From the IMG/VR virus record IMGVR_UViG_3300045988_152087, positions 1-35,987 of that record: a DNA stretch of 35,987 nucleotides; one strand, written 5' to 3'. The notes below the pieces were generated by a model. The model had not been told where the DNA came from, searched no databases, and worked only from the letters and a program-made list of their open reading frames with translations. Source of the DNA: a virus. Shown here piece by piece: positions 1 through 35,987 of this stretch. Position numbers and translations under genes: made by a program. The first letter of the stretch is position 1. Each line of letters opens with the position of its first letter.

Positions 1-101
1 GGTGGGCTCGGGCTTCTTGGGCTCGACCGAGGGGGTCGGGGTGGGCTCGGGCTTCTTGGGCTCGACCGAGGGGGTCGGGGTGGGCTCGGGCTTCGGGGTC
101 A
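1..101 (-). repeat. Tandem 39-bp coding repeat (PTPSVEPKKPEPT linker) at the window start
   Basis: The unit ccgaccccctcggtcgagcccaagaagcccgagcccacc (reverse strand) occurs 2+ times. The same unit family ends the window at 35895-35987. Confidence 0.85.
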
Positions 102-1158
102 GGTTCGCGCCGGCGTCAACGCCGAAGCCCTGCTGCACCACCACGCAAGCGCCCTCCTTCATGGCACCACCGTCGAGCTCGACGTGGTTGAAGTACTGGC
201 GCCCCACGACGGCTTTGTCAGGCTGGCCCTGCTCGGCGGCGAAGCGGGTGGGGTAGCGCAGCTGGTAGTTGGTGTTGTTCTGGAACGGGCCGGTCACGGT
301 GTAGGTGGCGGAGTGTCCGTCCTCGCCGTAGGTGGCCGTGATGGTGAACTCGCCGGCGGCGGCCGCGGTGCCGAGCGTCTCATCGACGCCGCTCACGCGG
401 CGGGACCACGTGGTGGCACCGGGCTCGTCGGTGATGAAGTTCATGCCATCGCCGAGGGTGTCGGTGAAGGTGATGGTCTGGGTGCTTCCGTCGAAGGTCT
501 TGCCGAGCTTGGCGGCCGTCTCGTCGTTGGCGCCGAAGTCGATGCCCCAGTCAACGCGGGTGCCGCCGGCGTAGGGGTTGGAGCCCCACTTGGCGAGGGT
601 CCACTGGCTGTCCTGCGGGCCCACGACGCCCTCGCCGTTGGGCGTGGGGACCTGCGTAACGACGCCGTTGGCGGTCATGGTCGCGGGGCCAGCGGCGAGG
701 ACCTTGGACGCGACCACGAAGGCGAACCCGGTGCCATGGAAGTCCGTGTACCCCTCGGCGCGGAGGTTGCCCACCGCGTCTCCGAAGGTGCAGGTGACGT
801 CGTGGCTGCCCAGCTCGCAGGTGCCGATCTCGACGTCGCGGCTGGCGACCGACATGGTGAGAGGCTTGGTCTCACCGGAGCCGAGGGCAGAGAAGCTGTC
901 CCCGAGGCCGATGGTGAAGGTGTCGCCGGGCTTCGGGTCCCCGGACCAGCTGAAGCCGAGGCGTGCGTTGGACCAGAGGGTGAGGCCGCCGTCAACGGCC
1001 GCCCCAGTGCGGTCCACCCGCTGGAGAGTCAGGTCCGACACCGTGACCCGGGGGGTCTCCTCGGCGGCGGCCGAGCCCCAAGGGAGGAGGGCAAAGATGA
1101 GGGCGATGAGGAGGGATGCTGCGACGGTCAACCGCGTCGCTGTTCTTGTAGTGCTCAT
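1..1158 (-). CDS. Cell-wall-anchored surface protein, N-terminal part (signal peptide + MSCRAMM-like domain + PT-rich repeats); runs off the window start
   Basis: Reverse strand translation from ATG at 1158-1156 gives MSTTRTATRLTVAASLLIALIFALLPWGSAAAEETP..., a signal peptide with an AxA cleavage site. It is followed by a ~330-aa Ig-like domain with a TITFTDTLGDG motif resembling the MSCRAMM N2 TYTFTDYVD motif, then (T)PKPEPTPTPSVEPKKPEP repeats. The frame stays open for all 386 codons down to position 1. The long plus-strand ORF 184-1335 is its antisense shadow. Confidence 0.8.
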   Translation of the reverse strand, partial: MSTTRTATRLTVAASLLIALIFALLPWGSAAAEETPRVTVSDLTLQRVDRTGAAVDGGLTLWSNARLGFSWSGDPKPGDTFTIGLGDSFSALGSGETKPLTMSVASRDVEIGTCELGSHDVTCTFGDAVGNLRAEGYTDFHGTGFAFVVASKVLAAGPATMTANGVVTQVPTPNGEGVVGPQDSQWTLAKWGSNPYAGGTRVDWGIDFGANDETAAKLGKTFDGSTQTITFTDTLGDGMNFITDEPGATTWSRRVSGVDETLGTAAAAGEFTITATYGEDGHSATYTVTGPFQNNTNYQLRYPTRFAAEQGQPDKAVVGRQYFNHVELDGGAMKEGACVVVQQGFGVDAGANLTPKPEPTPTPSVEPKKPEPTPTPSVEPKKPEPT

Positions 1159-1165
1159 GTGCTAG

Positions 1166-1210
1166 AGCATAAGAACGGCCCCGACACTGTGTCAAGTGCC
1201 GGGGCCGTTC
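1166..1210 (-). promoter_or_regulatory. Terminator hairpin with embedded sigma70-like promoter (module B) driving a leaderless surface-protein mRNA
   Basis: 15-bp stem 1173-1187/1196-1210 with one wobble and loop tgtgtcaa. On the reverse strand the loop holds TTGACA (1195-1190), then an 18-nt spacer, TATGCT (1171-1166), 7 nt (ctagcac), then ATG 1158. It lies directly downstream of the DUF2800 gene stop at 1229. Confidence 0.55.
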
Positions 1211-1228
1211 AGTTATTCGTGTCGTGTG

Positions 1229-2362
1229 TCACTCGTCCTTCACCAGAGTCGGGGCTGAGGTGCTCAGCTTCAGCAGGTCACCCACGGCGGCGTCCAGGGC
1301 CTTGCGGCCGCCCACGGCCTTCTCCAGCTTGCTGAGCGTGGCCGGCGAGCGGGTGAACGCCTCGTCCTCACTCAGCATCCCGAAGTCCACGAGTGCCTGA
1401 GCGGCCTCCTCGGTGACCGATCGCCGAGCTCGGCCGGGCTTCAGGTGCCAGCCAGGCAGCCCCTCCTCGGTGCCTGCCTGCCGGAGCGCCTCGCGGCGAA
1501 CCGCCTTGCACCAGCCCTCGACCGCCTCGACGGTGCCCATGGCCTCGGCCAGGGTGGCCGGTGAGTAGTCCACAGGGTCAGCGGTCAGCCCGGTCGCGGC
1601 GTCGAGGCCCACAGCCTCGGCGACGAACGCGGCCCGCTCGGGACACCACGGCGCCGCCGGGCAGAACAGGCACCCGCCCTCGCTGGGGACACGCGGCGCA
1701 CCCTCGATCTTGGTGGCTTCGGCCGCCGCGGCCAGCTCCCTGCCCCAAGCGTGCAGCGCCTCGGCAGTCATCACCGCCGTCGATGTGTGCCCACCATCCT
1801 TGTGCCTTGGCTGGACGATGGTCATCCGCACCTCGGAGATGTCCCGCTCCAGCTCGGCATCCTGAAGGGCACCGAGGGCGTAGCACCGCAGCTGCGGGTT
1901 GTCCTCAGCCTCGACGCGCACGCCCCGGCCGAACTTCAGGTCGAGGACGTGCAGCACGCCCTTGTCCGAGATGACCACGGCGTCGGCAGTGCCGTAGACA
2001 CCATCGATGACGAAGACCCGCTTCTCCAGCAGCAGCCTGGCGTGCTTGCGTCCGCCGAGCTCCTCCCAGGCATCGGACACCTTGTCAACGTAGGGCATGA
2101 CGCCGGCCTTCAGCTCGTTGGCGTCGTACTTCTCTCCGTACTCGGCCTTCCACTCCTTCAAGAGCGCGCCCTGGCCCTTCAGCTCGATGCGCTCCCTCAG
2201 GAGAATCTCGGCCAGGGCGTGGGCCGCCGTGCCCTCGGCCGCCGCCTCCGACGTGGTGTCATCAACGGGGCACGCCGCGATGGCTGCGACGGACCCAGGG
2301 CAGGTCATCCACCGCTTGGCCGCTGATGGTCCGAGCGTCGCGTGCGCTGCGGGGCCCGTCAC
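1229..2362 (-). CDS. PD-(D/E)XK nuclease, DUF2800/Cas4-like exonuclease with C-terminal Cys cluster
   Basis: GTG start. DLKFGRG catalytic-like motif and CLFCPAAPWC Cys cluster. This family typically accompanies DUF2815 and DNA polymerase in phage replication modules. The GTG start overlaps the upstream stop (GTGA). Confidence 0.75.
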   Translation of the reverse strand: MTGPAAHATLGPSAAKRWMTCPGSVAAIAACPVDDTTSEAAAEGTAAHALAEILLRERIELKGQGALLKEWKAEYGEKYDANELKAGVMPYVDKVSDAWEELGGRKHARLLLEKRVFVIDGVYGTADAVVISDKGVLHVLDLKFGRGVRVEAEDNPQLRCYALGALQDAELERDISEVRMTIVQPRHKDGGHTSTAVMTAEALHAWGRELAAAAEATKIEGAPRVPSEGGCLFCPAAPWCPERAAFVAEAVGLDAATGLTADPVDYSPATLAEAMGTVEAVEGWCKAVRREALRQAGTEEGLPGWHLKPGRARRSVTEEAAQALVDFGMLSEDEAFTRSPATLSKLEKAVGGRKALDAAVGDLLKLSTSAPTLVKDE

Positions 2363-2781
2363 AATGCCACCACCATCGCGGTAGCGGCGGCCACGTCCTC
2401 GTCCTTCAGCTCGGTAGCCCTGGCGGCCCCGAACTCCTGAAGGACCTGCGCGACCTCGGCGCGCTTGCCAGCCTTCAGGGCGCTACGCATGGCGTCGAGC
2501 AGCGCCTCGCGGGACCCAAGCTCCCCACCTGAGGTCTGCTCCGTGGAGGGGGCGGTCTCGGTAGGGGGGACGGGGGCCGGCCCCTCGGCCTTGGGCTCTT
2601 CGGCTGGCTTGTCCTTGCGGGGGGCACGGCGCTTCGGCTTGGGCGCCCCCTCGGCCGCAGCGGGGTCGGGCTTCTCAGCCGCAGCGGGGGCGCCGGAGGA
2701 GACGAACGGGGCGAGCGCCGCGGTGATCGCGGCCAGCTCGGCGGCGTCCGAGGGGGTGACGTGCAGTGTGATCTTAGCCAT
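2359..2781 (-). CDS. Hypothetical protein, Ala/Pro/Lys-rich low-complexity centre
   Basis: 140-aa ORF MAKITLHVTPSDAAELAAIT... with a weak AGGAA RBS. Its stop overlaps the downstream GTG start. Confidence 0.55.
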   Translation of the reverse strand: MAKITLHVTPSDAAELAAITAALAPFVSSGAPAAAEKPDPAAAEGAPKPKRRAPRKDKPAEEPKAEGPAPVPPTETAPSTEQTSGGELGSREALLDAMRSALKAGKRAEVAQVLQEFGAARATELKDEDVAAATAMVVAL

Positions 2782-2799
2782 CGTGGGTTCCTAACTGAG

Positions 2800-2836
2800 G
2801 TTGGGGTGCCAGACCTTTGCGGCCTGACACCCCAAC
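2800..2836 (-). promoter_or_regulatory. Intercistronic hairpin (9-bp stem) downstream of the primase gene, with a possible internal promoter just upstream
   Basis: gttggggtg (2800-2808) pairs with caccccaac (2828-2836) across a 19-nt loop. On the reverse strand TTGACA (2866-2861) is followed by ~18 nt and then a TATTGT-like -10. Confidence 0.35.
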
Positions 2837-2873
2837 AATATGACTGACGCTGTCGCCCTGTCAAGTTCTGTGG

Positions 2874-5255
2874 CTAGTGACTCATCCCCGGCTGAGCCCA
2901 GACGGACAGGCGGGCGCCTCCCCCGCGCGGGTCCCCGACCTGACCCAACGGCTCCCACCCGAGCGCCCGCATCGTGGCAGTCACCGCGCGCACCGTCGTT
3001 CGCTGGGGGAGCTCATCCTTCAGGTCCACCATGAGGGTGGCGGCCGAAACCGGCTGCGGGGTCCATGTCGGGTCCTTGACAAGCATCGCGGTCTCCCGCT
3101 CCACCTTGCCCATCCAGGCGTGGCCCCGCGGGCGAGGCGTCATGATGTACCGGTACACCGGGCCAACCAGAGGGTCCTCCTCAGTGGCCCGCTCGGCCCT
3201 CGCGGACTGCATGACCTGCTCTTCCTCGTCGCTGAGCCACGTGGACTCCCCGCGCTTGAACAGCACGACAGCCTCGGCCCAGATCTGGTCGCGGCGCTCG
3301 GGGGTGAGGAACGCCGTGGGGATGGTCTCCACGATCCGCACGGGCCAGTACCGGCGGTTCCCCTCCTCGTTGGCAAGGAAGTCCTCGTGGTTCGTGGTGC
3401 CCCACACCACGAAGCGGCGGGCCATCGTGCGCGACGTGCGCCCGTACTTCGGCCGCCACGTGTCCGAGCGGGCGGTGAGGAATCGCTTCAGCGCGTCCCC
3501 ATACCGGGAGCCGCTGCGAGTGACCGCGAACCCCTCGTCGGCCTCAACAATCCATGCCTTGTGACACGGGTCGAACAGGTCCGCGTCTCCGCCGAGGATG
3601 TCAGGCAGTGGTGCCGCCCACGGGCCGGCGAGCCAGCGCACCCACGACGTCTTGCGCGTGCCCTGCGGGCCAACGAGGACCAGCGAGGAGTCCACCTGCC
3701 ACCCGGGCCGGTACGCGCGGGCCACGGCCGCCACGCATGCCCGCATCACGGCCCGTGACGCCCAGCGGCGCTCATCCTCGTCGTCGCGGTCCACGCCCGG
3801 CAGCACCTCTTGGAGCGTGGCGGCGCCACCAGACAAGCGCGGCACGCCGTCCCACTCCAGCCGGTCCAGGTATGAGGTCAGCGGGTCGATCTCCCGACCG
3901 GGCTGAGAGGCGGAGAGGCTGAGCAGCTCCCTCACCGTGGAGATCGACGGCACGTCCCCGCCGTAGTGCTTGCCGAGGTACTGCTGCACCGCGGCCTCGT
4001 CCTCGTCCTGATCGGGGTACAGGCCCAGGCGCCGGGCCTCCTGCTCGAACAGCTCGGACTCACTGGCCCACTCTGGCTTGACCCTCCAACCCGGTCGGCG
4101 CCCCATCGCGGAGATGGCCCTGGAGGCGAGCATCGGGTCCATGTCCACGAGCGTCTGGCGGTCCTTGGCGTCGGTGAGCGCCCGCTTGCCCGTCTTGGGG
4201 TTGCGGGGGCTGAGCGCCGCCTCGCACGCCTCGATGGTCAGCGGGCCGTCCGGCTGGGGGCCGGCGTCGAAGGTGGCGGCGGCCATCTCCTCGGCGACGG
4301 CGGGAATCTGCGCTGCGTCCACGCCCATCAGCGCCCGGGAGCGGCGCTCGGCCGGGGGCTTGTCCTGGTCGTCCTGGGCACTGCCGGTCTGAAGGCCGTG
4401 GCGCCACTCGGCCACCAGGTCGAACACGCTCATGGTCTGCCCGTGGGTCGGCGAGGTGCCGGCGTGGTCGAACCACAGCGTGCGATCCTCGTTGACCGGG
4501 GTGAGCCCTGGCTGAGTCTGAGTGGAGTCGATGTGGATGAAACCATTCCCGCAGGGGCGGTAGGGGAGCTGGAACTCCTCGACGGCCTCCTCCATTGAAT
4601 AGGTCCGGTTGAATGCGCCGGCAGCACCGGGGAGCTGAAGCGGGTCCCGGCGGGTGCGGTGCTTCGGTGAATCGGAATTAGCGGGGGCCTGATTGAACAT
4701 CGGGGTGGAGTTGAGAACTGAATCCACCTCGATAGGGTCGCCATTAATGCGGTGTACCTCGACCCCGAACAGCTCGGCGTTCGAACCCGGGATGATGTGT
4801 GGGAGGAAAAAGCGGTGGCACCCCGCCATGGCGGACGGGTCGACAATTACGCCGAGCTTCTCCGCCGCCCATTTCACGAGGGTCGGATAAGCGCCGGGGT
4901 GAACAGGGCGATCAATGGCGATGATGACCCGGAGCCGAGGGCGCTCGGCGGTGTGGGATGCGGTCGTGTGGACAACGGAGTCCCACCCCTGCCGGCGGAG
5001 CCGCTCAGGCACGTCATGCGGCACGTCCTGGTCCAGGTCGAGCACGACGGCGGTGTGCTCGACGACGTTCTCCGCCGTTGCGCGGGGGGCCCTCAGCGTC
5101 CCCACGAACACGCCGGGGACGGACCGAGGGTCCTTCTCCAAGACGGGGGCGGAGGCTGCGAGGTCGGTGAAAGTGTCTAGGGTCCACTCCTTCTGGCGGT
5201 AGTCCCCGCTCGCGAGGGGGGAGGCCAGGGACACTGGAATGGTGATGGCGGTCAC
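2874..5255 (-). CDS. DNA primase-helicase (N-terminal prim-pol-like domain + C-terminal VirE/P4-type NTPase)
   Basis: 793 aa with a GTG start. Walker A GPQGTRKTS sits in the C-terminal half and VirE-like motifs (FVVWGTTNHEDFL) follow. Size and position next to the other replication genes fit. Confidence 0.65.
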   Translation of the reverse strand: MTAITIPVSLASPLASGDYRQKEWTLDTFTDLAASAPVLEKDPRSVPGVFVGTLRAPRATAENVVEHTAVVLDLDQDVPHDVPERLRRQGWDSVVHTTASHTAERPRLRVIIAIDRPVHPGAYPTLVKWAAEKLGVIVDPSAMAGCHRFFLPHIIPGSNAELFGVEVHRINGDPIEVDSVLNSTPMFNQAPANSDSPKHRTRRDPLQLPGAAGAFNRTYSMEEAVEEFQLPYRPCGNGFIHIDSTQTQPGLTPVNEDRTLWFDHAGTSPTHGQTMSVFDLVAEWRHGLQTGSAQDDQDKPPAERRSRALMGVDAAQIPAVAEEMAAATFDAGPQPDGPLTIEACEAALSPRNPKTGKRALTDAKDRQTLVDMDPMLASRAISAMGRRPGWRVKPEWASESELFEQEARRLGLYPDQDEDEAAVQQYLGKHYGGDVPSISTVRELLSLSASQPGREIDPLTSYLDRLEWDGVPRLSGGAATLQEVLPGVDRDDEDERRWASRAVMRACVAAVARAYRPGWQVDSSLVLVGPQGTRKTSWVRWLAGPWAAPLPDILGGDADLFDPCHKAWIVEADEGFAVTRSGSRYGDALKRFLTARSDTWRPKYGRTSRTMARRFVVWGTTNHEDFLANEEGNRRYWPVRIVETIPTAFLTPERRDQIWAEAVVLFKRGESTWLSDEEEQVMQSARAERATEEDPLVGPVYRYIMTPRPRGHAWMGKVERETAMLVKDPTWTPQPVSAATLMVDLKDELPQRTTVRAVTATMRALGWEPLGQVGDPRGGGARLSVWAQPGMSH

Positions 5256-5833
5256 GATTTATCTCTCTCTAGGTTGTGGTCGGGGGTCCGTCACCCATCA
5301 AGGCGGGGCGGAGCGGCTTGGCCCGGACGCTACCATGATGGTGGGGAACCTTGCAAGGGGAAACGTTGCAACGACGCGGCGCTACTAGGTTGACTAGGTA
5401 AATGGGGCGAAATCGGTGAAACTTTGCGCGCCGTCAGGTAACGATTCGTTACCCTCGTGTCCCAGGTCATATGACCGAGCGGATATATCGGCGTCGTGAT
5501 CTACCCAACCGGGCGGAAGCGTGTCCGCTGGGCCCGAGATGGCGCGATTTCGCGCACCTAGCACGAACCTAGTGGACCCGGAATCGGCGGAATGACGCCA
5601 AAAAGTCCCCCCTTCTACTAACTACTACCTTCTTTCTATAGAGAGTAGAGAGAGAGAGTAAAGGAATGGTAAAGAAAAAGGGGGAGAGAACTATACGCGG
5701 GCGCGCGCGAGGCAGCGGCTTGTGACTGGGGTCACGCTGCACCGGGGCCGGCCCCCGCCAACGGTCGTGGGGGCGACCCACGTGGCGCGGACCACACTTG
5801 CGCGCTCAGCGCCCCATCGAGTACGCTGGAGCC
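5256..5833. promoter_or_regulatory. Divergent control/origin-like region between the leftward primase operon and the rightward HNH/late genes
   Basis: Perfect palindromes GGTAACGATTCGTTACC (5437-5453), GGTCATATGACC (~5465-5476), CGTTGCAACG (~5351-5360) and GCGCGATTTCGCGC. CTAGGTTG occurs twice and ACCTAG twice. A polypyrimidine-to-polypurine tract spans ~5590-5690 and is markedly AT-rich. Dyad GTGACTGGGGTCAC lies at 5722-5735. TTGCGC-N18-TACGCT-N6-ATG sits before the HNH start. Confidence 0.6.
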
Positions 5834-6265
5834 ATGACGCCGACCATGCCGCCCACGAGATGCACCCAGCCGGGGTGCACGCGCTTGACCCCCTCCGGCG
5901 CATCGAGGTGCCCCACCCACGCCAGCCGGACCCCCTCGGCACACACCCGGTGGCTCCAAGCCCACCCCTCCCACCGAGCCCCCTGGGCCTCCCTGCGTAC
6001 CCGGACCCTCCAGGCACACCCCTCCTGCCAGTGGCCGGGCTGCACCGCCCCGAGCACCGAGGTGGACCACATCGTGGAGATCGCCGACGGGGGCGCATTC
6101 CTCGACGAGGGAAATGTTCAGGCTCTTTGCCGTGAGCACCACGAGCGCAAGACAGCAATCGCAGCTGCGAATCGAAAAGCGAATAGCACTCGGCTCCGCA
6201 AGGCGAAGGGCAAAGCCGTTAAGCGCAAGCCGCGCATTCCACGCGACGCGACTTGGGTCGAGTAA
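5834..6265 (+). CDS. HNH endonuclease (terminase-associated)
   Basis: CQWPGC...VDHIVEIADGG...NVQALCREHHERKT is an HNH motif. The ORF-track start at 5798 is a TTG; the ATG at 5834 (MTPTMPPTRC...) is preferred. Position next to terS fits cos-type phages. Confidence 0.8.
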   Translation: MTPTMPPTRCTQPGCTRLTPSGASRCPTHASRTPSAHTRWLQAHPSHRAPWASLRTRTLQAHPSCQWPGCTAPSTEVDHIVEIADGGAFLDEGNVQALCREHHERKTAIAAANRKANSTRLRKAKGKAVKRKPRIPRDATWVE

Positions 6266-6585
6266 AGCCTCAACAATCGAGGCACACACAAAATCAAAAA
6301 AATACAAAACTGATTCAACGTGGAGTCGAGAAACCGAAACGGCGACGAAGCCGAACGGGGGATTGAAAAAGCCGGAGGGGCGTTCCACAAAAACAAAACA
6401 CGCCGCCAGGGGGGCGCGCCCGTCATTCCAAGCCAAAAACTCGGCATTCGGCCCCTCTTGCGCACGGGCGCGAGGCGTGCTAGGCTGATCCCACCGCCGG
6501 GCGCAGACCCACATCGAGGATCGAAGCTTGCACTACGGGGTAGCGTCCGGCGGCTCCCTACCGATCAGATTCCGAGGAGCCGACG
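6266..6585. other. A-tract-rich non-coding region; candidate cos / terminase recognition site
   Basis: Runs such as caaaatcaaaaaaatacaaaac, gaaaccgaaacgg, gattgaaaaagcc, cacaaaaacaaaacac and agccaaaaactc sit in an otherwise ~67% GC genome, between HNH and terS. The terS RBS gaggag lies at ~6574. Confidence 0.45.
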
Positions 6586-7065
6586 ATGAGCCGCAAAGCC
6601 GGTCAGAGCGTGAGTGACGCCCGCCTTCCGCGTGGGCTCCGGCTCGTGGACGACTCGGTGCCGGAGAAGGCCACGATGCACACCGCGGCGGCGTTGCCGC
6701 GGGACGCCGATCGGCTCGCGCCCCCCTCGACGCTGAGGGCGGACCTGCACCCCCTGTGGGACGAGATCACGGGCTCGCTCCACGCGAGCGGCCTCCTGGC
6801 CGCCGCGGACACCACGATGGTGGCACTCCTGGTTCAAGAGCTAGAGCTCTACACAATCGCGGTTGGCACCGCCCGCGCAGAGGGCGTGATCCTCTACAGC
6901 GAGAAGGGCACCCCGGTCGCCAACCCGGCGTTTTCCATCGCCTCGACTCACGCCCGCGTAATCGAGGGGCTGTGCAAGACGATGGGCCTTACCTTCGTGG
7001 CCCGTGCGGCGATGGACGCACCAGAGTCTGTGAAGGCGAAGGCCGGCAACCCGTTCGCCGTCTAG
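6586..7065 (+). CDS. Terminase small subunit (P27 family)
   Basis: 159 aa, immediately upstream of the large terminase. Sequence character matches P27-family terS (LHPLWDEI..., VANPAF). Confidence 0.7.
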   Translation: MSRKAGQSVSDARLPRGLRLVDDSVPEKATMHTAAALPRDADRLAPPSTLRADLHPLWDEITGSLHASGLLAAADTTMVALLVQELELYTIAVGTARAEGVILYSEKGTPVANPAFSIASTHARVIEGLCKTMGLTFVARAAMDAPESVKAKAGNPFAV

Positions 7066-7074
7066 CCTGAACCC

Positions 7075-27668: not shown

Positions 27669-27692
27669 TGGTCTGTGCCTTTCGGGGTTGGG

Positions 27693-29436: not shown

Positions 29437-29699
29437 TGGGCGACCCCCGCGATCTCCCGCAGCTCCGCCGGGCGGTAGCCGCTCAGCGTGCGGACAAGAG
29501 CGCCTGAGTCGTCCCGCACCTCAACCAACGGCGCGCTGGTCATACCGAGCGCCTTAGCGTTGCTGAGCGCCAGAGCGGACTCAGGGCTTCCGTCGGTTAG
29601 AGAGCGCTCATCGTAGGCAAGGCCTAGCTTGTCGATCATCTTCATAGTGAGTCGGCAGGGCTGGCAATTGGGCTGGTGAAAAACGGTGATGTGCTTCAT
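29433..29699 (-). CDS. nrdH: NrdH-like glutaredoxin/redoxin
   Basis: VFHQPNCQPC carries the CxxC active site, and size and fold fit NrdH-redoxin. Confidence 0.75.
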   Translation of the reverse strand: MKHITVFHQPNCQPCRLTMKMIDKLGLAYDERSLTDGSPESALALSNAKALGMTSAPLVEVRDDSGALVRTLSGYRPAELREIAGVAH

Positions 29700-29710
29700 G
29701 TCTTCTGAGG

Positions 29711-30172
29711 TTAGTCGTGCTTGCCGGCAATCTTGCAGATTCCCCGGACAAGCTTGGTGGTTGCGTCAGACAGCCGGGTGTGGAACCGGGCTACCCCGAT
29801 CTCCCGCCCCCGGTCGAGGACGATGATGGCGTTACGCGCCCGGTTGTAGTCGAGGGACACCTCGCGGCTGATCGCTTCAGCTCCGCAGCCCTCGGCGGAG
29901 CCCCCCATCGCTTCGGCGATGCGAGCTCGCAGGGCCCCGGGCAGGAGTCCCGCGTCGGCAAGGGCGAGAACCTCACCGATGGTCCACTCAGGCCGTCGGG
30001 CCAGGCGCTCGGACAGGTTCCCCGCCTTGGCGCCGAGCGGGTCCGCGATCCGCTTCATGTCCCGCAGGTAGTACTGCCCCCGGTGGTATGCGAGGTCCTC
30101 TAGGTGGTCGCAGATTTCTGAGGTGGCGCGCGCGTCCTGCTCGACGGCGCTGGGGCTGAGTCGGCGTCTCAC
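29711..30172 (-). CDS. Hypothetical protein
   Basis: GTG 30172 overlaps the upstream TGA (GTGA). 153 aa. The longer ORF-track call would overlap the upstream gene. Confidence 0.45.
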   Translation of the reverse strand: MRRRLSPSAVEQDARATSEICDHLEDLAYHRGQYYLRDMKRIADPLGAKAGNLSERLARRPEWTIGEVLALADAGLLPGALRARIAEAMGGSAEGCGAEAISREVSLDYNRARNAIIVLDRGREIGVARFHTRLSDATTKLVRGICKIAGKHD

Positions 30173-30504
30173 TGGGAAACCACCTCCGCGAAGTCCCGCG
30201 CGAACCAGTCCGCCGCCTTGCTCGCGAGGCCACCACGCCCCGTTCGGGAGTAAGCGTGAATGCGACCCGACTCCGTGGTGGTCCGGCCAGTCGGTGACCA
30301 CTCAATCGCTCGCAAGGTCCAGTGTCCGCGGTTATCCACGCCGAAGCTCTTCGAGGTGCGCGTCGCCCCTCTCTTCTCGTCAAAGAAGACGCAAACGCTC
30401 TTCGGCGTGACTCGGATGTCCTTGACGTGGGCAGGGAGCACGGCTCGGAGTGCCCGCTCCATCTCCTTGGCAAAGTCCTCGATGACGATGGTTTGTGTCG
30501 CCAT
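30169..30504 (-). CDS. Hypothetical protein
   Basis: ATG 30504 is preceded by strong RBS aaggagg. 111 aa, MATQTIVIEDFAKEMERALR... Confidence 0.55.
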   Translation of the reverse strand: MATQTIVIEDFAKEMERALRAVLPAHVKDIRVTPKSVCVFFDEKRGATRTSKSFGVDNRGHWTLRAIEWSPTGRTTTESGRIHAYSRTGRGGLASKAADWFARDFAEVVSQ

Positions 30505-30559
30505 TGGGTTCCTCCTTGGTTGGGTTGTATTGGGCATATCATGCGCAGATGTTCTGCGA

Positions 30560-32524
30560 CTAGTCAAGTTCATCCGCGTCCGTGAGCTTCCTGTAACGGT
30601 CCACGACGCCGCCGGCAGCGCGCAGGTGCAGGCCCGGCGCCCACGGCAGGTCGGAGCTCATGATGTCCCGAACCTTGTGGAACGCCTCGATGCCGGCGGA
30701 GGACGGCTTTCCGGCCGCGTAGTCCCACCACTCAGCAGGCCCCTTTATGAGCACCTCATCGTGGACGTGGGCCACGATCTCGAACCCCGCGCGATCGAGC
30801 CGCACCATTGCAGATGCCAGGCAGTCGCGGGCCACGGCCTGCACGAGGTTCTCCGTCAGGCGACCGCCGAACGTCTCGACGGCGATGCCGCGGCGCGCGT
30901 CCCAGAACGCCACGGACGGGCGGCCCCAGCGGTCCTGCGTCGCACGGATGCCTCGGTAGATCAGGGTTCGGCCGCTCGGCAGCAGCATCCTGCGGAAGGC
31001 TCGGCCGAAAGAGTCCTGCCCGGCGACGATGCGCTCCCCGCCAGTTCGGAACTCGCGGCCGAGCTGGTCCCACAGCGCCGTGATGTGGGGGTTCGCTCGG
31101 CGCCATGCGTCCACCTGGGCCTGAAGCGCCTCGTCGCTCGGGCCGTCGCCTGCGAACACGCGCAGACCGTTCGGACCCGCGCCGTAGCCGCAGCCGAGCA
31201 GGGCCGTCTTACCCTCCTGGCGAGTCATCTCGTGGCCGACGGCGGAGCTCATGCGCGATGCCGTCTCGACGTAGAGGTCACGCTTGGCCTCGTAGGCGTC
31301 TAGCACCCATTGCTCGCCGGCGAGCCAGGCAAGCACGATAGCCTCGATGGAGGTGTAGTCGCAGACGATCAGGGGGCCGGCAATGACCGAGCGCACGCAC
31401 GCCGCAACCTCGACCGGGGTTACCAGCTCGCCGAGCAGGCACTTGTCGAGCACGTCGTCAACCGTCTCTCCCTCGGGCAGATGCTCCCGGGGGAGGTTCT
31501 GCGGCTGGAAGCCGCTCCCGCTCCAGCGGCCGGTGTGGGCGCCGAGGTAGCGGAGAGTCCCACGCGCTCGGTTGCCGGCGCCCCGTCGCAGCTCGGCCGC
31601 CGCGAGCTTCTTCCCCGCGACGCGGGCGGACGCCACTCGCAACTCAGCGACGCGACGCACCTCGGCCGGTAGCGACTCGTCCGCGGCCAGGCGCTCAACG
31701 GTCTCTCGGCGTAGATCGGGGAGGTTGATCCCCTTCGACGCGAACCACGTGCACAGCTGGGCGGTGCTGTTCGGGTTGGCGAGGCCGGTGATGCTCTTCA
31801 ACTCCTCCGCCTGTCGGCTCACGTTGTCGTCCTCGCAGCGCTGAAGGGCGTGCAGCAGCTCGACATCGAGGGGGAGGCCGGCATCCGTGATCTTCTCGGC
31901 GGTGAGCTCGACGGCGCGCTCCAACGCCGAGGGGGACAGGTCGATAGCCTGCCACTCGCGCTCCAGCGCGCGGTGCGCCTGCCGGAGGACCTCGACGTCC
32001 TGGATGCCGTAGGCGCGGAACTCAGTCCAGCGCTCGGGGTCATCGCTCGGCATGCGTCGGCCGCCGCGGAACGTCTTGGTCGCCGGCTGCGGCTTGGCGA
32101 AGCGGTTAATGAGGAGCGTCCCGGCCGTGTCCTTGTCCTCACACTTCAGCGCCTTGGCGAGGCTCTTCAGCGAGCTGGGGAGGCCGAGGAGGTACGCCCA
32201 GTGCATGGTGTCGATCCACTCGGCGGGGTCGAGGTAGTTGCCAGTGGCGCGTCCGTGGGTGTACGCGCTGACCTGGATTCGGTCGAACGCAGCGTTGTGA
32301 GCGACCTTGGTAACCGCAGGGTCCTGGATGAGGCCCAGGAACTCACCCCACAGCTCGGGGTCATGGCCCTCGGTGGTGGGCCCCTCGGTGATCTTCACAG
32401 GCTTGTCGTCGAGCGCCCACATCGCGAGGGTGATGCAGGCTTCAGGGCTCTCAGCGTAGCGGTGCGCGCCGGCCGAGATATCGATGTCGGAGTAGGTCTC
32501 AGTGTCTAGGTAAAGGGTTGGCAT
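30560..32524 (-). CDS. DNA polymerase I family (3'-5' exonuclease + family-A polymerase)
   Basis: Exo I motif LYLDTETYS, motif B RQEGKTALLGCGYGAG and motif C HVHDEVLI are present. The alternative start GTG 32590 overlaps the DUF3310 stop (GTGA) and would place hairpin 32538-32584 inside codons 3-19. Confidence 0.8.
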   Translation of the reverse strand: MPTLYLDTETYSDIDISAGAHRYAESPEACITLAMWALDDKPVKITEGPTTEGHDPELWGEFLGLIQDPAVTKVAHNAAFDRIQVSAYTHGRATGNYLDPAEWIDTMHWAYLLGLPSSLKSLAKALKCEDKDTAGTLLINRFAKPQPATKTFRGGRRMPSDDPERWTEFRAYGIQDVEVLRQAHRALEREWQAIDLSPSALERAVELTAEKITDAGLPLDVELLHALQRCEDDNVSRQAEELKSITGLANPNSTAQLCTWFASKGINLPDLRRETVERLAADESLPAEVRRVAELRVASARVAGKKLAAAELRRGAGNRARGTLRYLGAHTGRWSGSGFQPQNLPREHLPEGETVDDVLDKCLLGELVTPVEVAACVRSVIAGPLIVCDYTSIEAIVLAWLAGEQWVLDAYEAKRDLYVETASRMSSAVGHEMTRQEGKTALLGCGYGAGPNGLRVFAGDGPSDEALQAQVDAWRRANPHITALWDQLGREFRTGGERIVAGQDSFGRAFRRMLLPSGRTLIYRGIRATQDRWGRPSVAFWDARRGIAVETFGGRLTENLVQAVARDCLASAMVRLDRAGFEIVAHVHDEVLIKGPAEWWDYAAGKPSSAGIEAFHKVRDIMSSDLPWAPGLHLRAAGGVVDRYRKLTDADELD

Positions 32525-32537
32525 GGCTATAGAATAT

Positions 32538-32584
32538 GACGAAGCCCCCGGTGTCCGCAAGTTCTGCGGCCCGGGGGCTTCGTC
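32538..32584 (-). promoter_or_regulatory. Hairpin (14-bp perfect stem gacgaagcccccgg/ccgggggcttcgtc, nested inner stem) with TTGCGG-N18-TATTCT-N6-ATG leaderless promoter candidate
   Basis: Seen directly. The stem sequence matches the hairpin at 12888-12929. On the reverse strand it is followed by aTATTCTatagccATG. Confidence 0.45.
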
Positions 32585-32586
32585 AC

Positions 32587-32814
32587 TCACTCATCCCCTA
32601 GTCTCTTCAGTTCCCTGTTGATGTACCACCTCGCTTTCTTCAGGTCCTCGATGGTCTTCATCGCGTCCTTGCGCCCTGCTCGGGCGATGTACTTGACCGC
32701 GTTCCCGCGGTTGAAGTTCAGGTTCTCCGTGATGTCGATGACCTCGGCGCCGTTGGACCATCCCTCGGCGTAGTGGCTGGGGTGGTTCACCGAGTCACGT
32801 GCGTCTCGGCCCAT
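32587..32814 (-). CDS. DUF3310 family protein
   Basis: PSHYAEGWSNGAEVIDITENLNFNRGNAVKYIARAGRKDAMKTIEDLKKARWYI matches the DUF3310 signature (PSHY...GNaiKYi.Ra.rK). Confidence 0.7.
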   Translation of the reverse strand: MGRDARDSVNHPSHYAEGWSNGAEVIDITENLNFNRGNAVKYIARAGRKDAMKTIEDLKKARWYINRELKRLGDE

Positions 32815-33068
32815 CGTCTCGCCCCCTCTGTCGTGTCGATTGTGGTGACTGGGTGGCCCATGGCCTCGAGGTGCCGGTGGACCATCTTCTGCGACTCCCT
32901 TGGCACCTCGCCAGGGGCCTTGAGCTCGACTAGCCTCGTCTCCCCATTCGGGAGGAGGATCAGCCGGTCGGGGAGCCCCCTCATCGTGGGGGCTAGCTTG
33001 ATCGCTAGACCCCCGCGGGCGCTGACCGCTGCGACCAGCGCCCGCTCAACTGGGGTCTCGGGCCTCAC
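32787..33068 (-). CDS. VRR-NUC domain nuclease
   Basis: GLPDRLILLPNGETRLVELKAPGEVPRESQKMVHRHLEAMGH is VRR-NUC-like. Confidence 0.65.
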   Translation of the reverse strand: MRPETPVERALVAAVSARGGLAIKLAPTMRGLPDRLILLPNGETRLVELKAPGEVPRESQKMVHRHLEAMGHPVTTIDTTEGARRWAETHVTR

Positions 33069-33637
33069 ATCAGACCCGCGAGGGGGTCCTCGTCAGCGGC
33101 CGGCTGACTGGCGGACGGCTGGGCGGGGCCGAACAGGCTCTCTGCCGAGGCGGCTCCCCCGCCGAAGCGCTCACCACCACCGAGGATCTGGACCATCTGG
33201 AGCCCGAAGGAGACCCCCTTGGACCCATCCACCTCGTAGGCGAAGGCACGAACCGCGACGCGGGCCTTCTGGCCGCCGTATACCTCCTCGGCGATCTGCT
33301 CGTCGGAGAACGGGAGGAGGTCCGTGCCCACGATCGGCACTCGGCGGATCGAGGAGGCGTTGAAGGTGATGTGCCCGGCCTGCTCCTCGTAGTCGCTGTT
33401 GTCCCCGTCCTTCAGCGGGGTACGCAGGCTCTTCGGGACCTTGGTGCCCCACTTCTCGGCGGCGGCCTCGCGGACGGCGCCCTTCAGGGCCTCGATGGTG
33501 GTGGTGTCACTCTTGGGGACCATGACGGCGGTGGAGACCTTGGGCTTGCTGTTGCCGTTGCGGGCCTCCAGCTCCGCCAGGTGGGGCCAGGACAGGGTTG
33601 CAGGGCCAGTGGTGACGTCGACGCTCATGCGTTTTCC
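33065..33637 (-). CDS. DUF2815 family protein (phage ssDNA-binding-like)
   Basis: ATG 33637 with RBS gagaggaaaa. The N-terminus MSVDVTTGPATLSWPHLAELEA matches the DUF2815 start. The longer ORF-track call to 33874 would engulf the overlapping HTH ORF. Confidence 0.65.
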   Translation of the reverse strand, partial: GKRMSVDVTTGPATLSWPHLAELEARNGNSKPKVSTAVMVPKSDTTTIEALKGAVREAAAEKWGTKVPKSLRTPLKDGDNSDYEEQAGHITFNASSIRRVPIVGTDLLPFSDEQIAEEVYGGQKARVAVRAFAYEVDGSKGVSFGLQMVQILGGGERFGGGAASAESLFGPAQPSASQPAADEDPLAGLM

Positions 33638-33867
33638 TCTCGGGTTTGGTTGGTGTTGGGGCGACGGCGGGCGAACTTGCCCGCCCAGCGCATCGCTGTC
33701 TGCGTGGTGACTCCGACCTCTCGGGCGATCATGGGCCACGGGAGGCCCAGCTTGTGGAGCCGGTTGAGCGCCCGGCGGCGCTCGGTGGTGAAGCGGGAGA
33801 GACTCGTCTCCTGCTTCTCGATCAGGTTGCGGAGGTTGTCCACCTCCTTGCGGATATCGTCGTCCAT
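33625..33867 (-). CDS. Small HTH DNA-binding protein
   Basis: 80 aa; LGLPWPMIAREVGVTTQTAMRWAGK is a helix-turn-helix. It overlaps the DUF2815 start by 13 nt. Confidence 0.5.
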   Translation of the reverse strand: MDDDIRKEVDNLRNLIEKQETSLSRFTTERRRALNRLHKLGLPWPMIAREVGVTTQTAMRWAGKFARRRPNTNQTREENA

Positions 33868-33870
33868 GGC

Positions 33871-35325
33871 TCAAATATATGCGAGGTCATCCGAATCGGT
33901 CAAGTTGACACCCCCGTGTTCCTCATCACTCAGGCCGAGCGTGGTGAACACCGTCCGCTGGATGTCCGCCTTGCGGCCCAGCGCGTCCCAGATCGCGGAA
34001 GCGATAGACGGCTCTCCGCGGCCGTACACCGGCACGTTGAACTGGCAGGACACACTCTCCGCCGTCTGGCCTGGCCGGGCGAGTCGGGCGTTAGCCTGCT
34101 CCCACAGCTCCAGCGACCACGGCAAGCAGGACCACACCAGCGACTCACCCCCGAACTGGAGGTTGAGCCCGTGACCCGCTGACGCCGGGTGGGCGATAAG
34201 CACGTCAAGGTTGCCGGCGTTGAACGCCGCGCGGTCCTCGGCGCGCTTGGCCGAGCCGATGCGCATCTCCCGCAGCTGAGCCCGCAAGTACGGTTCCTCG
34301 TGCCTGAACCACGTCATCACCAGAACGCCGCGGCCAGTGACCTTCAGGCGAGCGCGCACGGCCGAGGCCGTGTAGTCCAGAGCCGGCCGAATGCGGTCCA
34401 CCTGAACCAGCTCGGGCTCAGCATCGGGGTCGAGCGGCGGCCGATACCAGATCGCCCCAGTGGTGAGCTGGTGCATCAGGTTCGCCACGGCACCCGGCCC
34501 CGACGTGTAGACCTCGCGCCCGTCGGGCAGGTGCGTCACGCCGTCGGCGAGCAGCTCCCTGCTCATGCGGACCGCCTCGCACCCCATGGTCGGGGTGAGC
34601 GCCTGGTAGGCCACCCCGGGAAGCACGAGCCCCTCGCCGGCCTCGGCGTATCGCATCACGTCGGACGCCTTGAGGATAAGCCGCCGCATCGCCCCGGGGC
34701 GCGGCTCGCGGCCGACTCGGGCGCCTGTGGGGATCATCCGCCCCTCGGTGAGGTACTCGTCGCGGGCACGGGTGACCGTCTTGCCAAGGCGCTCCCCACC
34801 GTCGAGCATCCGCACCAGCGACCACACCCCGATCGGATCATGGCCTGGGGTGCCGGTCAGCAACCACAGACGGTCGGCCGCCGAGGCCAGCTCCCGCAGC
34901 GCTCGGGCACGCTGGGACTCACCCCGGCTCGCCGAGGGGGTCATGTACCCGCTGGCCTCATCGACCACTACCGTTCTCCACGTGGTGTCGCTGAGCACGG
35001 CATCCCGGATCGAGGCGCTGGAGAGCACCACGACGTCGGCCAGCGTGTCGTCCAGAGCGGCGCGGCGCTTCGACGCTGGCGTGCGCGGGGCGGCCTCTAC
35101 GACGAGCGGGATGCTGCGGCGCTCGGCCTCGTCAGACCACGTGGACTCACTGACCGTCGGGGGTGCCAGGACGAGGGCTGGGAAGGAGTCAGCGGGCAGG
35201 TCCGCGAGCGCCCGCAGCGTCGTCCACGTCTTTCCGGTGCCCATGCCCGCGATGAGGAGACCCCTCGGGTGGCTGACGAGCCATTCCCGGGAGGTCTCCT
35301 GCTCCGGTGTGAGGGCCGCTGTCAC
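33871..35325 (-). CDS. SNF2-family helicase (DEAD/DEAH-like ATPase + helicase C domain)
   Basis: Walker A GMGTGKT, VVVDEASGY and helicase-C motif HPASAGHGLNL are present. GTG 35325 overlaps the upstream stop (GTGA). Confidence 0.8.
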   Translation of the reverse strand: MTAALTPEQETSREWLVSHPRGLLIAGMGTGKTWTTLRALADLPADSFPALVLAPPTVSESTWSDEAERRSIPLVVEAAPRTPASKRRAALDDTLADVVVLSSASIRDAVLSDTTWRTVVVDEASGYMTPSASRGESQRARALRELASAADRLWLLTGTPGHDPIGVWSLVRMLDGGERLGKTVTRARDEYLTEGRMIPTGARVGREPRPGAMRRLILKASDVMRYAEAGEGLVLPGVAYQALTPTMGCEAVRMSRELLADGVTHLPDGREVYTSGPGAVANLMHQLTTGAIWYRPPLDPDAEPELVQVDRIRPALDYTASAVRARLKVTGRGVLVMTWFRHEEPYLRAQLREMRIGSAKRAEDRAAFNAGNLDVLIAHPASAGHGLNLQFGGESLVWSCLPWSLELWEQANARLARPGQTAESVSCQFNVPVYGRGEPSIASAIWDALGRKADIQRTVFTTLGLSDEEHGGVNLTDSDDLAYI

Positions 35326-35735
35326 AGCGGTAGACCCCTCCGCACGAGGCATGCGACCATGCCGAGGTTCAGCACGTCATCACCGTCGGGCAGGCCGTCG
35401 GTGCGGTGGGCGAAGTCGTCGAGGCACAGCAGCAGCTCATCGGCGCTGGCCGTCTCTCCGGCCGCGCAGCACTCGTAGGCAACGCGGGCCGGCTCGCCCT
35501 GGGCGCCGATGGGGTCTCCGAGGCTGCGGTCGATCTCGCGGCACAGCACGAGGGCCGACTCGCAGACCGATGCGACGCGCTCAGCGCTCGCCGGCGCCGC
35601 CCCCTGGTCGAGGGCGAAGTGCAGCGAGGACGTCAGCGCCCGCGCCTTCTGCGCCGCGCGCATGTGGCCATAGGGGATGCTTGCCAGCTCAGCGGCGGAT
35701 GCCCGCTGAACCATCTCAAATGTTGGGTTGCTCAT
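35322..35735 (-). CDS. Hypothetical protein, first gene of the early leftward operon (leaderless start)
   Basis: ATG 35735 (MSNPTFEMVQ...) lies 7 nt downstream of the TATGCT -10 of promoter A. The ORF-track start at 35771 would lie inside the promoter. Confidence 0.5.
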   Translation of the reverse strand: MSNPTFEMVQRASAAELASIPYGHMRAAQKARALTSSLHFALDQGAAPASAERVASVCESALVLCREIDRSLGDPIGAQGEPARVAYECCAAGETASADELLLCLDDFAHRTDGLPDGDDVLNLGMVACLVRRGLPL

Positions 35736-35742
35736 GTGCCTA

Positions 35743-35786
35743 AGCATAGAATCGGCTCCCCGCCTTGTCAAGAGGGGAGCCGATTC
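35743..35786 (-). promoter_or_regulatory. Terminator hairpin with embedded sigma70-like promoter (module A)
   Basis: 13-bp perfect stem 35749-35761/35774-35786 with loop gccttgtcaaga. On the reverse strand the loop holds TTGACA (35771-35766), then a 17-nt spacer, TATGCT (35748-35743), 7 nt (taggcac), then ATG 35735. It lies directly downstream of the surface-protein stop. Confidence 0.6.
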
Positions 35787-35799
35787 AGTTCCTATTGGG

Positions 35800-35987
35800 T
35801 CAGTGGTTGCGGCGGTTGCGGACGAGGAGTCCCGCGCCGACCAGGGCCGCGGCCGTGAGCAGTGCTCCGCCGGCCGCGATTCCGGTGTGGGCGAGCTGTG
35901 GGGTCTCGGCCGAGGGGGTCGGGGTGGGCTCGGGCTTCTTGGGCTCGACCGAGGGGGTGGGCTCGGGCTTCTTGGGCTCGACCGAGG
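35800..35987 (-). CDS. Cell-wall-anchored surface protein, C-terminal part (PT repeats + LAHTG sortase motif + TM + basic tail); enters from the window end
   Basis: Reverse translation gives ...SVEPKKPEPTPSVEPKKPEPTPTPSAETPQLAHTGIAAGGALLTAAALVGAGLLVRNRRNH*. LAxTG is the class-E sortase signal of Actinobacteria. Confidence 0.8.
   Translation of the reverse strand, partial: SVEPKKPEPTPSVEPKKPEPTPTPSAETPQLAHTGIAAGGALLTAAALVGAGLLVRNRRNH

Follow-up and report, generated by a model that had tools for sequence, protein, structure and literature searches.

A gene for a predicted sortase-type, Cna-like adhesin spans the ends of a circularly closing siphovirus assembly from human oral samples

The two ends of the stretch of DNA analysed here (35,987 nucleotides, hereafter the window) carry the two parts of a single gene, the merged product of which, judged from its sequence, is a surface protein of at least 437 amino acids. 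The window represents a full siphovirus genome, that of an uncultured phage assembled by metagenomics from human oral samples; it closes into a circle and has 35,955 unique bp. The gene seems split because the assembler opened the circle within a tandem array of 39- and 33-bp units, leaving a 32-bp overlap at the ends. We hold the joint structural reading, that of one gene, a circular assembly and a Cna-like sortase substrate, with high confidence; the function of the protein lies outside that judgement. While a gene split at contig ends is an ordinary, routine assembly artefact, the gene itself points to a phage lineage that maintains a sortase-type, Cna-like adhesin related to surface proteins of Actinomyces.

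The N-terminal piece, 386 codons on the minus strand (1..1158), reads from 1158 to 1 without a stop, starting with MSTTRTATRLTVAASLLIALIFALLPWGSAAAEE and ending in PSVEPKKPEPT repeats. The C-terminal piece (35800..35987, minus strand) begins with the PT repeats and reads from 35985 to 35800 as SVEPKKPEPTPSVEPKKPEPTPTPSAETPQLAHTG-IAAGGALLTAAALVGAGLLV-RNRRNH-stop. The former exits the left end of the window and the latter enters at the right end, the order described in an earlier note on this DNA, which proposed that the two pieces are one gene. Positions 1..32 are identical to 35956..35987, the sole exact suffix-prefix overlap in the window, and the core of this 32-mer is confined to 1-32, 40-71, 35923-35954 and 35956-35987, with no occurrences expected in shuffled sequence. 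When the ends are abutted directly the pieces are out of frame because the overlap is counted twice; with one copy removed, leaving a 35,955-bp circle, they form one in-frame, minus-strand ORF of 437 amino acids without any edit. All four signals of the earlier note lie at the coordinates it gave, including the one repeat family at both ends, but the single C by which it took the frames to differ is an artefact of the overlap.

That repeat family consists of 39-bp units (PSVEPKKPEPTPT; 2.4 copies, 100% matches) at 1..94 and a 33-bp variant unit (PSVEPKKPEPT; 2.0 copies) at 35921..35987, both found with Tandem Repeats Finder and read on the minus strand, and it becomes a single array once the circle is closed. 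The stalk of the adhesin has from 1 to about 7 units in relatives, and the array size in the window is a lower bound; the note was right not to take it as the true repeat number. At least three further contigs of about 36 kb, along with several short ones, break within these same repeats, which marks the array as a recurrent assembler breakpoint. A second contig, of 36,510 bp, has the same split, with a 21-bp overlap and an in-frame product of 478 amino acids.

Since the 32-bp overlap lies inside a tandem repeat, it is by itself weak evidence of circularity, and the case rests on relatives rather than on reads from the sample. One of these, an IMG/VR contig (L003, 95% identical), is colinear with the window from 6340 to 55 and then directly from 35937 to 33076, thereby spanning the junction. 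In this contig and three others (L001, L002 and L006) the adhesin gene is intact and sits in the same neighbourhood, between the DUF2800 exonuclease and the small ORF/SNF2 helicase pair, and a fifth (L009) also carries an intact copy. Intact homologues of 400-425 amino acids, in the same gene order, lie on contigs of 35,976, 36,514 and 36,021 bp. Related phage contigs of 35.7-36.5 kb are opened at different positions, and across more than 25 related assemblies the longest contigs cluster at 35-37 kb. CheckV and IMG/VR practice takes a viral contig that has direct terminal repeats to be a complete circular genome, and the window resembles such contigs in its exact overlap of at least 20 bp, its complete gene set and a size equal to that of its relatives. 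It differs in that the overlap falls within a tandem repeat, a situation that pipelines flag as less reliable; here, the relatives colinear over the join confirm the closure.

Several other readings of the split gene deserve consideration. Two paralogous adhesin genes sharing a repeat might flank a prophage or a 36-kb chromosomal segment, making the window linear; paralogues in the same orientation at the bounds of a contig would look identical to what is seen, and the ends overlap by no more than 32 bp of tandem-repeat sequence. We consider this very improbable, given that relatives have a single intact gene at this place and are colinear across the junction, that the related assemblies cluster in length, and that every gene of the window is phage-like and none forms a host flank. 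Moreover, short peptide patterns from the adhesin found no copy among the GTDB species representatives (one genome per species). The gene could also be a true pseudogene in which a one-base deletion in the C run parts head from anchor. Direct abutment is indeed out of frame and two relatives (L010 and L011) have decayed copies, but merging the overlap restores the frame without an edit and the ectodomain is under purifying selection, which leaves this explanation scarcely credible. Just as unlikely is the proposal that the 32-bp repeat is a short direct terminal repeat at true virion DNA ends, with the adhesin gene split in the packaged genome. Some phages do have direct terminal repeats, and the window has one; yet relatives opened elsewhere carry the adhesin gene internally, short unrelated assemblies also break in the array, as an assembler breakpoint predicts, and the terminase region points to genome ends at another place.

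The window is a circular permutation, as the earlier note had it, of a circularly closing assembly, but the circular replicon that the note also offered does not follow from a circular assembly. An HNH endonuclease (5798-6265, plus strand; Pfam HNH) is followed by the small terminase (6586-7065, plus strand; PHROG terS) and the large terminase (7075-8799, plus strand; PHROG TerL). In HK97-like phages such an HNH-TerS-TerL arrangement goes with a cos site, and its presence at 5798-8799 suggests that the virion DNA is linear and of the cos type, its ends lying near 6.3-6.6 kb, likely in the gap at 6266-6585. The remaining gene set is that of a tailed phage, including portal, protease, capsid, tail, tape measure and amidase genes, as well as PolA, a VapE primase, an SNF2 helicase, exonucleases and a single-stranded DNA-binding protein. 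The window contains no tRNA, and no integrase, repressor or partition gene was matched in it by Pfam, PHROG or NCBIfam, although these scans left several ORFs without an assignment.

The adhesin has the features expected of a protein exported and anchored to a Gram-positive cell wall. A signal peptide (amino acids 1-31, 1158-1066), conserved across all homologues, was recognized by inspection from its basic n-region (TTRTATR), hydrophobic stretch (LTVAASLLIALIFALL) and AAA-E cleavage-type site. At the other end lies a tripartite sorting signal, made up of LAHTG (35895-35881), a hydrophobic segment (35880-35821) and a basic RNRRNH tail (35820-35803) followed by a TGA stop (35802-35800). Phage and Actinomyces homologues alike retain the motif LA[HRQ]TG, and LAXTG is the motif of class E sortases, including those of Actinomyces (PMC8225981). 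The phage protein has no match at E<=1 to the LPXTG_anchor model TIGR01167, and the Actinomyces homologue P0087 scores 17.6 bits, just above the cut-off of 15.9; as the model has only 34 positions and was built on LPXTG, the miss is a weak negative.

Between signal peptide and stalk, the PT repeats of which start at 102-1, are two tandem IgG-like (DEv-IgG/CnaA-like) domains. The first, at amino acids ~38-170 (1047-649), matches Big_8 (Pfam E 7e-6), and the second, at amino acids ~185-348 (606-115), matches DUF7926 (Pfam E 1.9e-28), a family placed in the Pfam clan Adhesin CL0204. A published study assigns DUF7926 to the CnaA-like domains and predicts an isopeptide triad for it (PMC12617251). 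In an alignment of 30 sequences K190, D233 and N324 are invariant, giving the Lys, catalytic Asp and Asn of such a triad; judged by position, they probably match Lys193/Asp241/Asn334 in the reference protein of that study and would form the predicted isopeptide bond. An AF2 model (pLDDT 75.8, pTM 0.60) has two beta domains, with predicted-fold matches to Cna, Cnm, RspB, SdrC, ClfB and FnBPA. A profile search of PDB sequences with the adhesin found nothing, so the MSCRAMM-like domain proposed earlier stands on Pfam and a moderate-confidence predicted fold. Near-identical proteins are already in GenBank, from Caudoviricetes metagenome genomes; there is no homologue among the INPHARED phages and no PHROG family for the adhesin.

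The gene is bracketed by two copies of a hairpin-plus-promoter module, a pattern that occurs twice in the window against an expectation of 0 and is kept in relatives with compensatory changes in the stem. The upstream copy (1156..1210, minus strand) comprises a hairpin with a 16-bp stem (1210-1173; MFE -34.2 kcal/mol), TTGACA (1195-1190) and TATGCT (1171-1166), both boxes from a promoter scan (10/12), and the adhesin ATG (1158-1156). This start codon lies 7 nt past the -10 box, making a leaderless mRNA likely. The second copy (35733..35786, minus strand) begins 13 nt beyond the adhesin stop, and its hairpin (35786-35749) is likely the terminator of the adhesin transcript; TTGACA (35771-35766), TATGCT (35748-35743) and the ATG of the next gene (35735-35733) follow in the same pattern. 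Sigma-70-like promoters also precede several more genes in the early block, so a promoter of its own is no peculiarity of the adhesin. Upstream lies the DUF2800/PD-(D/E)XK exonuclease (1229..2362, minus strand; Pfam E 1.6e-76, PHROG 69), a neighbour in L001, L002 and L003 likewise. Downstream is a small ORF (35322..35735, minus strand; about 137 amino acids from the ATG at 35735), conserved beside the adhesin in relatives and with no family match in Pfam, PHROG or NCBIfam, and then the next gene of the replication block, an SNF2-type helicase (33871..35352, minus strand; PHROG 62, E 2.5e-62).

Among close relatives the adhesin ectodomain has dN/dS values of 0.06-0.30, a sequence-based sign that the gene is under purifying selection, and its identity among relatives is similar to that of flanking core genes. 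In L010 and L011 the adhesin is cut to remnants of signal peptide and anchor, while the flanking genes are 86-94% identical. Purifying selection together with deletion in two relatives makes the adhesin behave as a moron-like accessory gene. Like a moron it is present in some close relatives and lost from others, which makes it look dispensable, and by pattern matches it has consensus-like promoters and strong hairpins on both sides and lies between conserved genes. Base composition, by which a moron can differ from its surroundings, does not set it apart: its GC content is 68.9%, compared with 70% in the neighbouring genes and 67.1% genome-wide.

The host is probably an Actinomyces of the naeslundii/oris/viscosus group. 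The nearest named cellular-genome relatives of the endolysin are Actinomyces species (47-51% identity), and the closest cellular homologues of the adhesin are Actinomyces surface proteins, which align with 75% of the phage protein at 42-45% identity. The lineage is widespread in human mouths, being seen in dozens of ~36-kb contigs that come from independent metagenomes. The missing integrase match and the lack of an adhesin copy among the GTDB species representatives suggest that the phage may be virulent and non-integrating, and a classical benefit through lysogenic conversion would then be hard to realise.

How such a protein might act can be outlined. After infection, host RNA polymerase would start at the gene's own TTGACA-N18-TATGCT promoter and produce a leaderless transcript terminated by the hairpin downstream. 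The product would be exported via Sec and then cleaved by the host's housekeeping class E sortase, which recognises LAXTG, and linked to peptidoglycan, with the head binding a ligand on tooth pellicle, host tissue or neighbouring bacteria. Our best guess, which we would put a little short of an even chance, is that the adhesin may thereby help infected cells to attach or co-aggregate in plaque. A clearly less probable role is that of a superinfection-exclusion or receptor-masking factor, which, much as the T5 Llp lipoprotein does, would bind or cover the receptor for the phage on the infected cell wall and either exclude superinfecting phage or spare progeny from adsorption to debris. A phage that may be virulent, with no integrase found and no adhesin copy in reference bacterial genomes, fits such masking, as do the place of the gene among the early/replication genes, downstream of a strong host-type promoter, and its divergence from a host surface protein of which it is a paralogue. 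These points bear on masking only indirectly, though, and the two relatives that have lost the gene are compatible with either role; the proteins known to exclude superinfection in Gram-positive phages are lipoproteins or small membrane proteins, not Cna-like adhesins of 400 amino acids.

Returning to the broader proposal, a common, apparently non-integrating oral Actinomyces phage would display a Cna-like adhesin through the host class E sortase during infection, either anchoring the cell in plaque near fresh hosts or masking the receptor. We regard this whole chain as unlikely, and our literature searches found no account of a lytic phage that remodels the cell surface through a sortase. If expressed, the adhesin would let the phage alter the adhesion of an early plaque coloniser to surfaces or partners, or its visibility to other phages. 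There is also a practical side: a short end overlap in tandem repeats with a gene split over the contig ends is a linearisation artefact with no biology in it, and naive joining of such ends yields a false frameshift and a repeat count that is a lower bound.

The adhesin adds to a familiar theme, that of phage morons coding for surface factors, and does not start a new one. SasX, for example, is an LPXTG protein encoded on a phiSPbeta-like prophage of S. aureus. As in such systems, the gene is an accessory one, lies between core genes of the phage and has a predicted promoter and terminator to itself; it codes for a predicted substrate of the host sortase that would alter the cell surface, and most relatives have it while some have lost it. 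In contrast to those systems, neither an integrase nor a repressor module could be detected in this genome, and the gene belongs to the replication block instead of neighbouring an attachment site or the lysis genes. Comparison with the Cna-type MSCRAMMs (S. aureus Cna, S. mutans Cnm, E. faecalis Ace and Erysipelothrix RspB) and the Clf/Sdr family shows a predicted likeness in the fold of the head, at only 10-18% sequence identity. The phage-encoded protein has neither B repeats (Cna_B) nor Ser-Asp repeats, its stalk is PT-rich, and its motif is LAHTG, of the class E type, instead of LPXTG. Closer still are the DUF7926 surface proteins of A. naeslundii, A. viscosus and oral taxon 170 (P0087, P0031 and P0086), of about 592 amino acids. 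These have different stalk repeats and, between head and stalk, a further domain (DUF5979, CnaB-like, about 170 amino acids) that is absent from the phage adhesin, but they share with it both the Big_8 and DUF7926 head and the PLAHTG anchor.

The two ends of the 35,987-bp window (67% G+C) fall within a single minus-strand gene for a putative surface adhesin. The N-terminal piece runs from 1158 to 1 as 386 open codons, with a typical signal peptide at its start and PSVEPKKPEPT(PT) repeats at its end, while the C-terminal piece (35985 to 35800, also minus strand) consists of repeats followed by LAHTG, 20 hydrophobic residues, RNRRNH and a stop. Tandem Repeats Finder placed two perfect arrays, one of a 39-bp unit at 1-94 and one of a 33-bp variant at 35921-35987. 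A 32-base core of the unit is present in four copies, all of them at the window ends, and is absent from shuffled sequences. Translation, the repeat search and the 32-mer count thus recovered all four signals from which an earlier note had argued for a split gene. The window begins and ends with the same 32 bases, the sole exact overlap between suffix and prefix. When the ends are directly abutted these bases are counted twice, the frame shifts, and a 482-aa nonsense read-through results; when the overlap is merged, the product is a 35,955-bp circle with a clean 437-aa ORF whose C-terminus reads ...PEPTPTPSAETPQLAHTGIAAGGALLTAAALVGAGLLVRNRRNH. The out-of-frame join, which the note had put down to a single C, therefore comes from the double-counted overlap, and a true frameshift in the adhesin is rejected. 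It had also been allowed that the pieces might fail to join in frame at any repeat number; the merged ORF is in frame and, because both repeat unit lengths are divisible by 3, any number of repeats would keep it so.

Since the overlap sits in a tandem repeat, independent evidence for the join was sought. Contigs of 30.9-38.3 kb encode full-length adhesin homologues (400-425 aa) that are 77-90% identical at 100% coverage. The related phage contigs L001 (35,976 bp) and L002 (36,514 bp) carry the intact gene between a DUF2800 exonuclease gene and a small ORF with an SNF2 helicase gene, a gene order identical to that obtained by closing the window. Another relative, L003 (IMG/VR, 36,021 bp, ~95% identity), aligns in one continuous run, from window position 6340 to 55 and then from 35937 to 33076, and it encodes an intact adhesin of 400 aa that has one repeat unit. 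The relatives of the window share one map, each opened elsewhere on it, and among dozens of related assemblies the longest contigs cluster at 35-37 kb, as would be expected from a free replicon of ~36 kb.

Several other readings of the split were weighed against this evidence. Two paralogous adhesins, one at each window end, can be set aside because the relatives carry a single intact gene across the junction, and physical genome ends inside the gene can be set aside because those relatives are opened at other points of the map; insertional disruption of the adhesin was likewise rejected. As for the earlier proposal of a circular or permuted replicon, the circular assembly stands, L003 being colinear across the join, though a circular replicon is not implied: circularity here is a property of the assembly, and the replicon itself is not necessarily circular.

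The genome is laid out in two blocks. The plus strand from 5798 to 27413 carries packaging, structural and late genes. Among their products are both terminase subunits (small and large), the portal, a protease, the major capsid and major tail proteins, the tape measure, other tail proteins and an Amidase_2 endolysin; several ORFs of this block have no match. The minus strand from 5255 through the map origin to ~27468 forms a replication block with a VapE-type primase/helicase, the DUF2800 exonuclease, the adhesin, the small ORF, the SNF2 helicase, an HTH protein, an Enc34-type ssDNA-binding protein, a small endonuclease, DUF3310, a family A DNA polymerase, a glutaredoxin-like protein and a second exonuclease. 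An HNH endonuclease gene (5798-6265, plus strand) immediately precedes the genes for the small and the large terminase; an ORF picked on GC3 on the opposite strand (5806-6072, minus) was rejected, the HNH ORF being the real gene. HNH beside TerS and TerL is an HK97-like cos arrangement, so the virion DNA is likely to be linear, with its physical ends expected in the 59%-GC gap at 6266-6585. No tRNA gene was found in the window, and no scan of it matched integrase, repressor or partition genes.

A megablast of 25 kb against INPHARED returned two matches and no more, both of 100-150 bp in tape-measure genes of Arthrobacter phages, so that at the DNA level the phage has no cultured relative; the large terminase is less than 49% identical to that of any INPHARED phage. 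The plus-strand block has some further features of its own. The head maturation protease gene (10961-11635) contains 6.9 copies of a 15-bp tandem repeat (GAGGACGAGAAGCCC, encoding EDEKP repeats) at 11039-11142. Two overlapping ORFs, at 15889-16248 and 16200-16631, come just before the tape-measure gene, where tail assembly chaperones produced by programmed frameshift are usually encoded. Just past the amidase gene, a 306-aa ORF (23148-24068) without a family match holds 2.3 copies of a 45-bp tandem repeat (23273-23375). At the end of the block, a 516-aa ORF (25508-27058) had no Pfam, PHROG or NCBIfam match and is conserved in relatives (520 aa); it may encode a tail fibre or receptor-binding protein. 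The divergent early/late intergenic region (5256-5797, 60% GC) contains an unusual purine/pyrimidine-rich tract (ctaactactaccttctttctatagagagtagagagagagagtaaaggaatgg), and a simple scan of it found no consensus promoter.

The break within the adhesin recurs in other assemblies. Three further ~36-kb IMG/VR contigs terminate within the adhesin repeats. One, of 36,510 bp, has a 21-bp terminal overlap and yields, once merged, a 478-aa in-frame adhesin with ~7 PEPQPTPSVEPKK units; another, of 35,670 bp, lacks the anchor part entirely. The third, L101 (35,998 bp), has a garbled array-internal end at 1-20 (CGCCCCCCCCGGTTGCGCCC) that leaves no exact overlap and gives a false frameshift, and illustrates how assembly can go wrong where a contig ends in a repeat. 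In other samples, several short contigs begin ~50-550 bp or less from the same breakpoint. A degenerate DNA pattern for the LAHTG region matched five contigs, the other ends of the split contigs being absent among them; these were located through the small ORF adjoining the adhesin. The same break in several contigs marks the split as an ordinary product of short-read assembly, and both the split and the circularity of the assembly are routine. The earlier caution that the assembly leaves the true repeat number open was well placed: relatives carry 1 to ~7 units, and the number read for the window genome is a lower bound.

The adhesin gene is flanked by two copies of a hairpin-promoter module, one upstream (1156-1210) and one on its other side (35733-35786), both on the minus strand. 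In each, a G+C-rich hairpin of 13-16 bp (-34 and -31 kcal/mol) carries TTGACA across its loop and 3' arm; TATGCT comes 17-18 nt past TTGACA, and an ATG 7 nt beyond TATGCT, a spacing that predicts a leaderless mRNA. The downstream hairpin, which starts 13 nt past the stop codon of the adhesin gene, can act as the terminator of that gene, and the module is probably a terminator for the upstream gene combined with a leaderless-mRNA promoter for the next. It is kept in all relatives (L001-L011), with compensatory stem changes. Gene calls for homologous proteins in other records (P0003, P0007-P0010, P0014, P0015) use as adhesin start an ATG that forms part of the TATGCT -10 box (MLxHMSTT...), four residues early, and the small ORF downstream has also been called from the ATG within its -10 box; in both cases these are probably mis-called starts of leaderless genes. 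Promoter scans covering 1-7000 and 27000-35987 gave three further sigma-70-like matches on the minus strand of the early block (2835-2864, 33874-33903 and 30538-30567), so the adhesin is not alone there in being preceded by a promoter, and no T-tailed terminators were found in 27000-35987.

In the adhesin itself, Pfam recognizes Big_8 at aa 70-132 (E 7e-6) and DUF7926 at aa 185-335 (E 1.9e-28). An AlphaFold2 model built with 30 homologues (pLDDT 75.8, pTM 0.60) shows two beta-sandwich domains, spanning aa 38-170 and aa 189-348, with the stalk disordered. Foldseek comparison of this model with the PDB ranked the collagen adhesins Cna, Cnm and RspB at the top (E 1e-13 to 1e-11, ~350 aligned columns), ahead of SdrC, Ace, SdrE, SdrG, ClfB and FnBPA. 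The predicted fold thus supports the MSCRAMM-like domain proposed earlier, with the Cna type closest. A profile search of PDB sequences gave no match, leaving the fold search alone informative; PHROGs has no family for the adhesin, and tblastn of the adhesin against INPHARED gave no match. DUF7926 is listed as CnaA-like, with a Lys/Asp/Asn triad, in a survey of isopeptide domains (PMC12617251), and K190, D233 (in an ITFTDTL motif) and N324 are invariant across the 30-sequence alignment. The sorting signal is visibly complete, though the short NCBIfam anchor model TIGR01167 did not match at E<=1; LAXTG is a class E sortase motif in organisms that include Actinomyces (PMC8225981).

The best cellular homologues (~592 aa, 42-45% identity) come from Actinomyces viscosus, A. 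naeslundii and oral taxon 170. They also terminate in PLAHTG, and differ in having a DUF5979 (CnaB-like) domain that the phage adhesin lacks. The nearest named cellular-genome relatives of the endolysin are likewise from Actinomyces species (47-51% identity). From these homologues and the 67% G+C we infer an oral Actinomyces host. A scan of bacterial genomes, one per species, with short peptide patterns from the adhesin gave only spurious PT-repeat matches (Myxococcota, Treponema and Ruminococcus MAGs), with no adhesin copy and no prophage or host link.

Among relatives the adhesin ectodomain is about as conserved (87-96% identity) as the exonuclease (90-96%). Its dN/dS lies at 0.06-0.30 when close relatives are compared and at 0.34-0.47 against the distant contig L009. 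In two closely related IMG/VR contigs, L010 (1884-2279) and L011 (5193-5517), an internal deletion with frameshift has reduced the adhesin to signal peptide and anchor, the flanking genes remaining intact. The base composition of the gene does not differ from that of its neighbours. Taken together, the flanking module, ectodomain conservation, dN/dS, loss in two relatives and neighbour-like composition mark it as a long-resident, moron-like gene, selected yet dispensable. Extra 145-aa ORFs flank the adhesin in L001 (9502-9939) and L002 (9505-9942 and 11726-12163) and are absent from the window, which makes the exonuclease-to-helicase interval a variable spot for accessory genes.

How such a protein might act can be proposed in outline. 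The gene would be transcribed early by host RNA polymerase, and the product exported by Sec and linked to the wall by the host housekeeping class E sortase, so that the PT stalk would cross the wall and the Cna-like head attach to a ligand. The favoured reading, at somewhat less than an even chance, is that the adhesin makes the infected or carrier cell adhere or co-aggregate more. Masking of a receptor, or superinfection exclusion, ranks second and is rather unlikely. For the biology of oral phages, the adhesin makes a reasonable lead. Near-identical proteins of Caudoviricetes genomes assembled from metagenomes are already in GenBank, under the names "fibrinogen-binding protein" and "collagen adhesion protein" (P0003, P0010); we found no discussion of them in the literature, and nothing specific on phage-encoded LPXTG/LAXTG adhesins in Actinomyces phages. 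Sortase substrates borne by phages or prophages are known, SasX being one example. In contrast to these, the window adhesin is Cna-like, carries a class E signal, and lies in the replication block of a phage without a visible lysogeny module.
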